From NCBI GenBank assembly GCA_965222155.1, contig CBDCTH010000012.1:224001-288000 (forward strand): DNA of 64,000 nt. Reading direction: 5' to 3'. The notes under the pieces were generated by a model that was not told where the DNA came from, made no database searches, and saw nothing but the letters and a program-made list of their open reading frames with translations. Of the stretch, positions 10,127 through 13,447 are shown piece after piece (positions within the stretch are counted from its first letter, which is position 1; each line of letters begins with the position of its first letter). The position numbers and the translations under genes are program-made. Source of the stretch: Gammaproteobacteria bacterium. Lineage in GTDB: Bacteria > Pseudomonadota > Gammaproteobacteria > Eutrophobiales > Eutrophobiaceae.

Positions 10127-10343
10127 CGTCAGCTCAGCAGTTCCCGCTAACTCCCGGGCTCGAGGGCATCCTGCCCTCGTGGAGGGCGAGACGCCCTCTC
10201 TCTCAGGGAAATATGCCCCCGCTGTCTTCGAATCCGGCAATAATCAACTGTATTGACCTCGATTTAGCGGGAGCACCTGTCAGTTTGGCAAGTGGTAGAG
10301 TAGAAGTGGCTTGTCAGGGAGACTGTGCTATATTGGCATTGCT

Positions 10344-10550
10344 ATGAACCCGGAAATTCTGACAACTGTAGGGGTCGGTATAGCGATTCTCGCTGCTGTT
10401 TTGCCAGCCATTTTGTACCTGTCCAAGCGCATTGATGAGCAGGGCAAGGAACAAGCGAAGTTCCGTGAAGACATGGCCGGCAGGATGGGCAAGCTGGAAG
10501 GTCTGCTGGAAGGTCTGCGAGAAGCCATCACCGGCAGGCGCGCTGCCTGA
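10344..10550 (+). CDS. Small membrane-anchored coiled-coil protein, unit 1 (68 aa, 0 extra repeats)
   Basis: MNPEILTTVGVGIAILAAVLPAILYL (TM) + KRIDEQG + KEQAK...LEGLLEGLREAITGRRAA. Confidence 0.8.
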   Translation: MNPEILTTVGVGIAILAAVLPAILYLSKRIDEQGKEQAKFREDMAGRMGKLEGLLEGLREAITGRRAA

Positions 10551-10885
10551 CCTGGCCGTGGCATTCCCCACCATACCTTGCCAGGATACGCCGCATCACT
10601 CTGTATATTTGTTCCTGACAGTCGCCGTAACTGGTTCCGGGAGCTGGCAACAGTTCCCGCTAACTCCCGGGCTCGAGGGCATCCTGCCCTCGTGGAGGGC
10701 GAGACGCCCTCCCTCCCAGGGAAATATGCCCCGTGACTCCTGGGGGACAGATTTGAATCTGTCCCCGCTGTCTTCGAATCCGGCAATAATCACTGTATTG
10801 ACCTCGATTTAGCGGGAGCACCTGTCAGTTTGGCAAGTGGTAGAGTAGTGGCTTGTCAGGGAGACTGTGCTATACTGGCATTGCT

Positions 10886-11224
10886 ATGAACCCGGAAATT
10901 CTGACAACTGTAGGGGTCGGTATAGCGATTCTCGCTGCTGTTTTGCCAGCCATTTTGTACCTGTCCAAGCGCATTGATGAGCAGGGCAAGGAGACGAACA
11001 AGCGCATTGATGAGCAGGGCAGGGAGACGAACAAGCGCATTAATGAGCAGGGCAGGGAGACGAACAAGCGCATTGATGAGCAGGGCAAGGAGACGAACAA
11101 GCGCATTGATGAGCAGGGCAAGGAACAAGCGAAGTTCCGTGAAGACATGGCCGGCAGGATGGGCAAGCTGGAAGGTCTGCTGGAAGGTCTGCGAGAAGCC
11201 ATCACCGGCAGGCGCGCTGCCTGA
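10886..11224 (+). CDS. Coiled-coil protein, unit 2 (112 aa, 4 extra 11-aa repeats)
   Basis: Same N- and C-termini; in-frame 33-bp repeats. Confidence 0.8.
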   Translation: MNPEILTTVGVGIAILAAVLPAILYLSKRIDEQGKETNKRIDEQGRETNKRINEQGRETNKRIDEQGKETNKRIDEQGKEQAKFREDMAGRMGKLEGLLEGLREAITGRRAA

Positions 11225-11562
11225 CCTGGCCGTGGCATTCCCCACCATACCTTGCCAGGATACGCCGCATCACTCTGTATATTTGTTCCTGACAGTCGCC
11301 GTAACTGGTTCCGGGAGCTGGCAACAGTTCCCGCTAACTCCCGGGCTCGAGGGCATCCTGCCCTCGTGGAGGGCGAGACGCCCTCCCTCCCAGGGAAATA
11401 TGCCCCGTGACTCCTGGGGGACAGATTTGAATCTGTCCCCGCTGTCTTCGAATCCGGCAATAATCACTGTATTGACCTCGATTTAGCGGGAGCACCTGTC
11501 AGTTTGGCAAGTGGTAGAGTAGAAGTGGCTTGTCAGGGAGACTGTGCTATACTGGCATTGCT

Positions 11563-11802
11563 ATGAACCCGGAAATTCTGACAACTGTAGGGGTCGGTAT
11601 AGCGATTCTCGCTGCTGTTTTGCCAGCCATTTTGTACCTGTCCAAGCGCATTGATGAGCAGGGCAGGGAGACGAACAAGCGCATTGATGAGCAGGGCAAG
11701 GAACAAGCGAAGTTCCGTGAAGACATGGCCGGCAGGATGGGCAAGCTGGAAGGTCTGCTGGAAGGTCTGCGAGAAGCCATCACCGGCAGGCGCGCTGCCT
11801 GA
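11563..11802 (+). CDS. Coiled-coil protein, unit 3 (79 aa, 1 extra repeat)
   Basis: Same termini; in-frame repeat. Confidence 0.8.
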   Translation: MNPEILTTVGVGIAILAAVLPAILYLSKRIDEQGRETNKRIDEQGKEQAKFREDMAGRMGKLEGLLEGLREAITGRRAA

Positions 11803-12137
11803 CCTGGCCGTGGCATTCCCCACCATACCTTGCCAGGATACGCCGCATCACTCTGTATATTTGTTCCTGACAGTCGCCGTAACTGGTTCCGGGAGCTGAC
11901 AACAGTTCCCGTTAACCCCCGGGCTCGAGGGCATCCTGCCCTGGTGGAGGGCGAGACGCCCTCCCTCCCAGGGAAATATGCCCCGTGACTCCTGGGGGAC
12001 AGATTTAAATCTGTCCCCGCTGTCTTCGAATCCGGCAATAATCACTGTATTGACCTCGATTTAGCGGGAGCACCTGTCAGTTTGGCAAGTGGTAGAGTAG
12101 TGGCTTGTCAGGGAGACTGTGCTATACTGGCATTGCT

Positions 12138-12509
12138 ATGAACCCGGAAATTCTGACAACTGTAGGGGTCGGTATAGCGATTCTCGCTGCTGTTTTGCCA
12201 GCCATTTTGTACCTGTCCAAGCGCATTGATGAGCAGGGCAGGGAGACGAACAAGCGCATTAATGAGCAGGGCAAGGAGACGAACAAGCGCATTGATGAGC
12301 AGGGCAAGGAGACGAACAAGCGCATTGATGAGCAGGGCAGGGAGACGAACAAGCGCATTAATGAGCAGGGCAAGGAGACGAACAAGCGCATTGATGAGCA
12401 GGGCAAGGAACAAGCGAAGTTCCGTGAAGACATGGCCGGCAGGATGGGCAAGCTGGAAGGTCTGCTGGAAGGTCTGCGAGAAGCCATCACCGGCAGGCGC
12501 GCTGCCTGA
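12138..12509 (+). CDS. Coiled-coil protein, unit 4 (123 aa, 5 extra repeats)
   Basis: Same termini; in-frame repeats. Confidence 0.8.
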   Translation: MNPEILTTVGVGIAILAAVLPAILYLSKRIDEQGRETNKRINEQGKETNKRIDEQGKETNKRIDEQGRETNKRINEQGKETNKRIDEQGKEQAKFREDMAGRMGKLEGLLEGLREAITGRRAA

Positions 12510-12844
12510 CCTGGCCGTGGCATTCCCCACCATACCTTGCCAGGATACGCCGCATCACTCTGTATATTTGTTCCTGACAGTCGCCGTAACTGGTTCCGGG
12601 AGCTGACAACAGTTCCCGCTCACTCCCGGGCTCGAGGGCATCCTGCCCTGGTGGAGGGCGAGACGCCCTCTCTCTCAGGGAAATATGCCCCGTGACTCCT
12701 GGGGGACAGATTTAAATCTGTCCCCGCTGTCTTCGAATCCGGCAATAATCACTGTATTGACCTCGATTTAGCGGGAGCACCTGTCAGTTTGGCAAGTGGT
12801 AGAGTAGTGGCTTGTCAGGGAGACTGTGCTATACTGGCATTGCT

Positions 12845-13150
12845 ATGAACCCGGAAATTCTGACAACTGTAGGGGTCGGTATAGCGATTCTCGCTGCTGT
12901 TTTGCCAGCCATTTTGTACCTGTCCAAGCGCATTGATGAGCAGGGCAGGGAGACGAACAAGCGCATTGATGAGCAGGGCAAGGAGACGAACAAGCGCATT
13001 AATGAGCAGGGCAGGGAGACGAACAAGCGTATTGATGAGCAGGGCAAGGAACAAGCGAAGTTCCGTGAAGACATGGCCGGCAGGATGGGCAAGCTGGAAG
13101 GTCTGCTGGAAGGTCTGCGAGAAGCCATCACCGGCAGGCGCGCTGCCTGA
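12845..13150 (+). CDS. Coiled-coil protein, unit 5 (101 aa, 3 extra repeats)
   Basis: Same termini; in-frame repeats. Confidence 0.8.
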   Translation: MNPEILTTVGVGIAILAAVLPAILYLSKRIDEQGRETNKRIDEQGKETNKRINEQGRETNKRIDEQGKEQAKFREDMAGRMGKLEGLLEGLREAITGRRAA

Positions 13151-13447
13151 CCTGGCCGTGGCATTCCCCACCATACCTTGCCAGGATACGCCGCATCACT
13201 CTGTATATTTGTTCCTGACAGTCGCCGTAACTGGTTCCGGGAGCTGACAACAGTTCCCGCTCACTCCCGGGCTCGAGGGCATCCTGCCCTCGTGGAGGGC
13301 GAGACGCCCTCTCTCTCAGGGAAATATGCCCCGTGACTCCTGGGGGACAGATTTAAATCTGTCCCCGCTGTCTTCGAATCCGGCAATAATCACTGTATTG
13401 ACCTCGATTTAGCGGGAGCACCTGTCAGTTTGGCAAGTGGTAGTGGT

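Follow-up and report, generated by a model that had tools for sequence, protein, structure and literature searches.

How does a bacterial chromosome come to hold five copies of one small gene, no two of the same length, head to tail between copies of a palindromic repeat, and is that series of lengths selected? The question is raised by positions 10135-13444 of a 64,000-nucleotide stretch of DNA from a Gammaproteobacteria bacterium of the Eutrophobiaceae (GenBank assembly GCA_965222155.1, contig CBDCTH010000012.1, positions 224,001 to 288,000 of the forward strand; hereafter the window). An earlier reading of the letters, here called the original prediction, had noticed there an array of membrane coiled-coil genes interleaved with a mobile repeat, which we name R. 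Our analysis indicates that the locus is probably a real tandem amplification, bounded by a miniature inverted-repeat transposable element (MITE), of one small gene whose predicted product is a membrane-tethered cytoplasmic stalk or scaffold. The genetic mechanism, MITE-bounded tandem amplification combined with slippage and recombination of in-frame repeats, is well supported. The mechanisms seen at the locus so far are known ones, of which it provides a clear example, with a MITE supplying the homology for gene amplification.

The array has the layout R-gene-R-gene-R-gene-R-gene-R-gene-R, head to tail, with all genes on the plus strand. Its features and immediate neighbours are as follows.

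10135-10279, plus strand: R1, MITE copy, short variant of 145 bp without the 33-bp inner palindrome, starting with CAGCAG
10326-10334, plus strand: extended -10-like box TGCTATATT, 9 nt before the ATG of gene 1
10344-10550, plus strand: gene 1, 68 aa, 0 extra repeats
10648-10824, plus strand: R2, MITE copy of 177 bp
10868-10876, 11545-11553, 12120-12128 and 12827-12835, plus strand: the box at the same offset in units 2-5, reading TGCTATACT
10886-11224, plus strand: gene 2, 112 aa, 4 extra 33-bp repeats; TRF tract 10966-11124
11322-11498, plus strand: R3, MITE copy identical to R2
11563-11802, plus strand: gene 3, 79 aa, 1 extra repeat; TRF tract 11643-11709
11900-12076, plus strand: R4, MITE copy
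12138-12509, plus strand: gene 4, 123 aa, 5 extra repeats; TRF tract 12218-12409
12607-12783, plus strand: R5, MITE copy
12845-13150, plus strand: gene 5, 101 aa, 3 extra repeats; TRF tract 12925-13050
13248-13444, plus strand: right end of the array, made of R6 (13248-13424) and 19-20 bp of unit-like sequence
9253-9975, minus strand: left neighbour, outside the array, alpha/beta hydrolase (Abhydrolase_6, 7e-20)
13448-14311, minus strand: right neighbour, acyl-CoA thioesterase II (Acyl_CoA_thio, 1e-41), stop codon 4 bp from the array end

The five units start at 10138, 10651, 11325, 11903 and 12610 and measure 513, 674, 578, 707 and 641 bp, and the 19 bases that come after the sixth R copy still agree with those on the right side of the other copies. 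Read from their ATG codons, the five open reading frames (ORFs) encode proteins of 68, 112, 79, 123 and 101 aa that have the same N-terminus (MNPEILTTVGVGIAILAAVLPAILYLS), the same C-terminus (...GRMGKLEGLLEGLREAITGRRAA) and 38 C-terminal residues in common. They differ by 0, 4, 1, 5 and 3 extra in-frame repeats of 33 bp (TRF period 33), each unit encoding KRI(D/N)EQG(K/R)ETN. The sequence, TRF and the ORF positions confirmed the array of intact, in-frame copies of five lengths that had been predicted, and comparison of the units confirmed their identical N-terminal transmembrane segment, identical C-terminus and numbers of extra repeats.

Outside R and the 33-bp tract, the unit backbones differ by one single-nucleotide polymorphism (SNP) in the upstream box of the promoter region, one in the final repeat, one at the base that immediately precedes the following R copy, and one 3-bp indel. 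Most SNPs within the array lie in R, whose copies carry patterns of their own. The array repeats are 97-100% identical, and the unit sequence outside R occurs at these five places only in the 4.55-Mb genome. Furthermore, all four combinations of the two SNPs within the 33-bp repeat (D/N and K/R) are present, which points to recombination among repeats. A 59-nt R pattern gave 8 matches in the window and none in 100 shuffles, excluding chance as their source. We also compared unit 1 with a single paralogue elsewhere in the window genome (G000:C12:102424) and observed 12 synonymous codon differences vs 1 non-synonymous difference in the last 37 codons, indicating that the array ORF is a real gene under purifying selection.

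The box TGCTATATT or TGCTATACT upstream of each array ATG is a putative promoter. A scan for two-hexamer promoters did not pick it up. The distance from box TGCTATACT to the ATG is 9 nt in the array and 6 nt in the paralogue, and members of a second subfamily in the same genome have an AAGGA Shine-Dalgarno-like site in its place. Judging from this local context only, the array genes may have near-leaderless mRNAs.

R has the hallmarks of a non-autonomous transposable element. R2 to R6 belong to a 177-bp variant, and R1, besides being without the inner palindrome, has one extra base, a further indel. The ends of R are terminal inverted repeats (CAGCAGTTCCCGCTAAC ... GTTAGCGGGAGCACCTG across copies), and 9-bp direct target duplications were found at many copies (e.g., C12:973149, 1458423, 2064428 and 1388174); no matching pair was seen at the R copies of the array themselves. 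A blastn search located R on both strands of the genome in 100 copies of 100 bp or more, 69 of them full-length and 31 partial, and a search for the 12-nt core of its inverted repeat, allowing up to two mismatches, gave 611 occurrences. R has no ORF of its own, contains three internal hairpins and folds as a single strand at -47 kcal/mol (z -5.5 vs 200 shuffles). Two 1.6-kb elements (C12:1153955-1155561 and C12:1299211-1300823) have the ends of R, 9-bp duplications and transposase-like ORFs, the latter without a Pfam or NCBIfam match, and this parent insertion sequence (IS) may represent an unclassified IS family.

Inverted repeats, 9-bp duplications, small size, about 100 copies and a longer IS with the same ends are all shared with MITEs, and R is therefore a MITE of this genome's own unclassified 1.6-kb IS. 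It differs from MITEs in its three internal hairpins and in a parent transposase that matches no family. The palindromic mobile repeat of the original prediction was borne out by the inverted repeats and target duplications. Full-length R was found in none of 22 other genomes of the same genus, showing that its spread is recent and lineage-specific. Other copies in the window lie away from the family genes, at 25382-25547 (plus strand), 27403-27533 (minus strand) and 18020-18120 (partial). One of the same-genus genomes, G010, is without full-length R and bears a tandem repeat with a 48-bp period (G010:C3:1056363-1057581) that is similar, at 80-87% identity, to positions 17-75 of R, its double-hairpin core.

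The layout of the array suggests how it would have arisen. An ancestral gene would have lain between two direct copies of R, and unequal crossover between the left and right copies, in the 3' (last) part of R, would have produced R-U-R-U-R, where U is a unit. Further unequal exchange between units would have raised their number to five, while slippage and recombination within and between the in-frame 33-bp tracts would have left a different number of 11-residue units in each copy. The periodic region, five units followed by one R and 19 bp, does not amount to a whole number of units, and an extra R at the end of five units is characteristic of exchange between two direct repeats that were already in place. 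Furthermore, that R1 is distinct from the R2-R6 variant fits a first crossover in the last part of R followed by unit exchanges. Both features agree with the expansion by recombination between R copies that had been proposed.

The locus resembles known amplifications by unequal crossover between dispersed repeats (IS, repetitive extragenic palindromes or MITEs) with variation of the variable-number tandem repeat type, in that the array is bounded by direct copies, its units are nearly identical and its repeat tracts vary in multiples of 3 bp. Unlike in these, the copies do not represent a short-lived gain in dosage of a gene known to be selectable, and diverged arrays of the family persist in related genomes with their proteins conserved. 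A close match to the neighbouring thioesterase was found in one of the 22 same-genus genomes only (G002, truncated), with no family gene beside it, so the ancestral empty site was not found. Directly to the left of R1, positions 10089-10134 hold a 20-nt inverted repeat that contains a perfect extended -10 box (TGCTATAAT) and has the 10-mer AGCTGGCAAC in common with the junction that ends each array unit. This match may bear on the placing of the first R copies.

Arrays of such genes were also found in related genomes, and homologues are thus not always single copy. G005 has a tandem array of five genes encoding proteins of 102, 113, 135, 113 and 109 aa and a second array of four genes with stop-to-stop open frames of 125, 100, 119 and 173 residues. 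G010 has an array of three genes (open frames of 175, 121 and 153 residues), and G014 has a cluster of seven genes (96-179 aa) within 10 kb. The units of the G005 array show 80-90% DNA identity, and the parts of its paralogues that encode the transmembrane segment differ mostly at synonymous sites (e.g., 7 synonymous vs 1 non-synonymous). This combination of diverged DNA and conserved proteins indicates that the arrays are old and that every copy was kept functional. By these sequences, clustering of length-variant paralogues is a family trait and not a peculiarity of the window, and arrays of repeat-bearing helical proteins recur in this bacterial genus. In G005, a conserved region of about 230 bp also lies upstream of dispersed family genes (G005:C1, e.g., 395264-395538 and 1798712-1798943) and could be a common promoter or regulatory element.

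The original prediction had interpreted the five lengths as a contingency or 'ruler ladder' system. In such a system, having several stalk lengths at once, or switching length rapidly, would be beneficial, for example where partners have to be reached at graded distances from the membrane. Mostly different-length paralogues are clustered in four genomes (G000, with two clusters, plus G005, G010 and G014), every repeat unit is a multiple of 3 bp, and the divergence of the G005 units around conserved proteins points to long-term upkeep of several functional copies. However, in-frame units make a change of length cost-free, so slippage alone would be expected to give different lengths. In five draws from six states, all values would differ by chance in about 9% of cases (our own arithmetic), the G005 array holds two copies of equal length, and an unrelated nuclease gene array of the window genome shows the same repeat variation, which suggests a general mutational habit. 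Direct support for the ladder was not found, and we consider it unlikely that the lengths were selected. Selection, if proven, would make the locus a length-variation system of a new, intracellular kind; otherwise it tidily illustrates amplification and slippage at work in an uncharacterised family.

The amplified gene encodes a protein with a short acidic N-tail, one hydrophobic helix and a variable tract of 11-residue periodicity, features that recur throughout the family. In the array proteins the sole hydrophobic segment is N-terminal (residues 5-23). Identity autocorrelation over the family gave its top peak at lag 11 (0.241), followed by lags 18, 22 and 7. The C-end is nearly invariant, RM(A/G)KLEGLLEGLREAITG(K/R)RAA, and exactly 10 residues follow LEGLLEGL in 182 of 214 members. 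AlphaFold2, given the alignment of the family, predicted one uninterrupted helix (residues 3-78, mean pLDDT 86). The 11-residue periodicity of the original prediction is thus found in the 33-bp period of the DNA, in the lag-11 peak and within the predicted helix. Furthermore, the 12 residues after the hydrophobic helix contain more lysine and arginine than the N-tail in 195 of 197 members with a short N-tail (means 2.80 vs 0.02), which by the positive-inside rule would put the variable helix on the cytoplasmic side and leave the N-terminus outside. This predicted location argues against a surface decoy, one of the roles that had been put forward.

The product would accordingly span the inner membrane once (bitopic), with an acidic N-tail of 4 residues outside, followed by the one transmembrane helix and a continuous cytoplasmic helix whose length would be set by the number of 11-residue repeats, and its conserved C-terminal helix would serve as a module for self-association or for docking to a partner. 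In the 79-aa form, the C-end shows a heptad pattern when read from the sequence (M59, L62, L66, L69, I73) and is predicted to suit a short zipper. Prediction of a complex of two copies of this form gave no verdict either way (score 0.11, vs a mark of 0.42). A helix rises by 0.15 nm per residue, which gives about 1.65 nm for each 11-residue unit, and the cytoplasmic tails of 45 to 100 residues would span roughly 7 to 15 nm if helical. We take the protein, as a working reading, to be a cytoplasmic stalk or scaffold tethered to the membrane, with a reach that would differ between paralogues. The window provides a natural series of one protein with 0, 1, 3, 4 and 5 inserted 11-residue units, a set suited for tests of stalk length.

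By sequence comparison, the array gene belongs to a large, stand-alone, uncharacterised protein family. A word-indexed search returned 595 relatives at E<=0.01, and a profile built from 24 members matched 763 representative clusters (50% identity) at E<=0.001, 103 of them at E<=1e-10. The matched proteins are nearly all 44-231 aa long, without an informative fusion, and longer matches look like mis-called starts or read-through into a neighbour. No match of the window proteins with Pfam, NCBIfam, PADLOC or PHROGs rose above sub-threshold noise from coiled coils; at E<=1, Pfam listed 21 families for the 123-aa form and one for the 68-aa form. In the PDB, the best profile match (E 0.033) was with viral coiled coils that are unrelated, all clusters returned by the ESM Atlas were of 'hypothetical protein', and a search of the literature for the family motif found no mention. 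Therefore no name, domain model, structure or paper was found for a family that is large, multi-copy, lineage-restricted and cross-phylum.

To look at the genes beside the family, we chose the longest ORF on either flank and scanned against Pfam those of the first 40 loci (77 of the 153 chosen ORFs); none of the 78 Pfam families seen recurred, indicating that the gene stands alone, with no operon partner. Clustering of raw ORFs from 78 loci was swamped by spurious high-GC ORFs. Twelve members are encoded in the window genome, five of them in the window. The single paralogue at C12:102421-102720 (minus strand) lies 20 bp after two large ORFs whose translations read as type IIG restriction-modification-like, and another member sits between ordinary genes; five more, along with a reversed relative, form a cluster on contig C4. 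An IS1595-like transposase and a HicB-like antitoxin gene, again by reading of translations, are also found near this paralogue (C12:99000-107000). In another organism, the C-end of such a methyltransferase is run together with a family member (P0232).

Within the genus, the profile matched 21 of the 22 other genomes, with 1 to 19 matches each. No match was found in 18 genomes of other genera in the same sampling, nor, at E<=1e-6, in 200 genomes sampled evenly across the class's other genera. In a species-representative collection, 195 stretches encode relatives, from which 78 related loci were kept, all 78 in records of metagenome-assembled genomes. By title, 32 loci are of the Acidobacteriota type, 23 of the Gammaproteobacteria type, 18 of the Alphaproteobacteria type, 2 each of Gemmatimonadota and Binatia, and 1 of Versatilivoraceae. 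This patchy spread across phyla suggests horizontal transfer of the family in a common habitat. The original prediction had mentioned similar proteins from sponge-associated genomes. This link fits the names of some of the relatives' records, one series of which (APA_bin) is used for symbionts of the sponge A. aerophoba in an excerpt of PMC11706023.

A broader proposal would join these observations into a new, horizontally shared family associated with sponge or coral holobionts, whose arrays are kept for graded stalks, with repeat change as the length-diversifying mechanism and the invariant C-helix docking one partner at varied distances. We regard this combination as improbable.

Among known systems, the Bdr proteins of Borrelia are the nearest analogue in behaviour, and the likeness is one of resemblance only. 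The membrane anchor of Bdr is C-terminal, whereas that of the window family is N-terminal (residues 5-23). Moreover, Bdr genes are located on plasmids and prophages and not in chromosomal tandem arrays, and the invariant C-terminal LEGLLEGLREAITGKRAA helix sets the window family apart. The resemblance lies in central short tandem repeats whose number varies between paralogues, here 0, 4, 1, 5 and 3. Excerpts of two papers describe Bdr as multi-copy small paralogues, associated with the inner membrane, with variable tandem repeats and a function not known (PMC10016077, PMC3303823), and in an excerpt of the latter bdrT has about 9 vs 6 repeats in two strains (PMC3303823). No Bdr or Borrelia-repeat model was among the Pfam matches of the 68-aa and 123-aa forms at E<=1, with no direct Bdr alignment made, and DUF1640/CCDC90-like PF07798 gave no match to the window proteins at the same threshold. 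Membership of Bdr/DUF1640, to which the original prediction had likened the family, was thus not borne out beyond the similar repeat variation. Among 120 relatives listed, one (P0018) has a precomputed PF07798 domain.

ATP synthase subunit b, YhcB/DUF1043 and YtxH also have an N-terminal transmembrane helix followed by a long cytoplasmic helix, and subunit b has an 11-residue periodicity and tolerates changes of length. The window family differs from such housekeeping subunits in being multi-copy, patchy and without an operon partner. The NCBIfam match to ATP synthase B/delta was at chance level (E 0.0078, 15 bits vs a cut-off of 328), and neither YtxH (COG4980) nor DUF1043 was matched in Pfam at E<=1. 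JGI names among the 120 relatives listed include two of 'gas vesicle protein' and one of 'YhcB (DUF1043 family)'.

The family could alternatively consist of phage-derived membrane proteins (i-spanin, holin-like or exclusion) or of components of anti-phage defence. The 123-aa form weakly matches PHROG 739, an Rz-like spanin (5.7e-6), and, in PADLOC, the coiled-coil parts of LeoBC and ZorA (1e-4 to 3e-3). The paralogue that, by reading of translations, has an IS, a HicB-like gene and the type IIG restriction-modification-like ORFs as neighbours, and P0232, in which such a gene is run together with a family member, point in the same direction. However, the 68-aa form reaches only 0.079 for PHROG 739 and has no PADLOC match, indicating that these matches are driven by repeat composition. 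Furthermore, no relative was found in 50,697 phage records, 72,556 plasmid records or IMG/VR contigs, and no Pfam family recurs in the scanned flanks of the 40 loci. The C-terminus of an i-spanin is periplasmic, and the predicted C-in topology is the opposite. With a repeat-dependent match, no phage, plasmid or viral relatives and a predicted cytoplasmic C-terminus, the proteins do not behave as Rz-like i-spanins, and we consider a phage or defence origin very unlikely.

Could the array instead be an artefact, with allelic length variants of a single-copy locus in a mixed population concatenated by the assembler? The assembly has many contigs and an estimated contamination of 7.28%, small contigs duplicate parts of a larger one, and the array repeats are 97-100% identical. 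Nevertheless, in Logan contigs from three runs of two studies, the unitig of the common 3' part of the gene had 4.7, 5.2 and 5.1 times the depth of the unique flanks (942 vs 195-202, 736 vs 135-151 and 52.8 vs 10.4), which fits about five copies per genome, while a mixture of alleles would give about one. In addition, the R copies within the array have their own SNP patterns, and similar arrays are found in single-contig genomes of the genus. Alleles of one unit strung together are thus extremely improbable. Two contig joints inside R (e.g., 10158>13335) were looked at as possible deletion alleles and set aside, as their sides are only 24 letters long and other copies of R are their probable source. 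Identically flanked R copies are present on contigs C10 and C7 and on C10 and C8, indicating that small contigs duplicate parts of C10. This duplication may explain the contamination estimate.

A further possibility, that the locus is an integron-like array in which R serves as the attC site for recombination and the genes are the cassettes, has next to no chance of being correct. The R-gene-R-gene layout of small ORFs and the stable single-strand fold of an imperfect palindrome do recall cassettes, but R has 9-bp duplications, is spread over the chromosome on both strands and shares its ends with the 1.6-kb IS, every cassette would be the same gene, and the best integron integrase of the genome (TIGR02249) scores 84 bits vs a cut-off of 265. 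Usual attC sites are also shorter than the 177 bp of R.

MITE-bounded amplification of a gene for a membrane-tethered stalk remains the reading that we prefer, and several observations weigh against it. The 19 shared bp beyond R6 are not accounted for by a simple model of exchange between R copies. In a second array of the window genome (G000:C12:933911-941506), three units are without R and four have it, and the spacers of the G005 arrays contain no genome-wide repeat, their sequence occurring only beside family genes. Tandem arrays thus form without R. The forming of arrays therefore belongs to the family, with R either helping it locally or being a passenger; of the expectation that homologues would stand in arrays next to the same R element, the recurrence of arrays holds, and R proved not to be intrinsic to them.

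Concerning the reality of the copies, the depth ratios are consistent support for a five-copy array and not proof, contig depth not being a copy number, and the best-matching runs may be the assembly's own source. The repeat numbers 0, 4, 1, 5 and 3 of the individual units are read from the assembly, contigs built from 31-letter words being too short to check them, and some bins had no cover. No RNA run is listed among the 11 runs that hold the region, which bears neither way on expression. As for the product, topology, helix and zipper are predictions, and the scans made revealed no conserved neighbour, fusion or known domain that points to a role. With Ile as its only hydrophobic residue, the 11-residue unit of the window proteins offers little for a coiled-coil core, and on its own the tract would make a poor coiled coil. 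Alternatively, the tract may act as a spacer that links the membrane anchor to the zipper.

Scans of the window for Rfam families and, with ARAGORN, for tRNAs found none, and a first impression that part of R resembles a tRNA arm was dropped on that result. The second array of the window genome consists of eight copies encoding a protein of about 216-241 aa. The N-terminal part of this protein is a coiled coil in which 7-residue repeats (MKETDRQ) vary, and the C-terminal part is a PD-(D/E)XK nuclease domain of the Hjc/AHJR-like type (Pfam Hjc, 1e-4). R is present in units 4-7 of this array and not in units 1-3, and the coiled-coil part of the protein weakly matches the profile of the window family (E 5.4e-4).

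The second subfamily of the window genome has a cluster on contig C4 (418630-427256) composed of five same-strand genes and one reversed relative, and it is also represented at C12:467078-467440. The C4 cluster lies among apparent IS630-like and IS481-like transposases and a ParE-like toxin gene, as read from translations, and has a different dispersed repeat of about 105 bp. Proteins of this subfamily have an MSMELIALIG... N-terminus and the C-end LEGLLEGLREAITGRRVAEDAGKYDPR, and their repeats are either the 11-residue AQREETRAEFK or the 7-residue GLREEIN.

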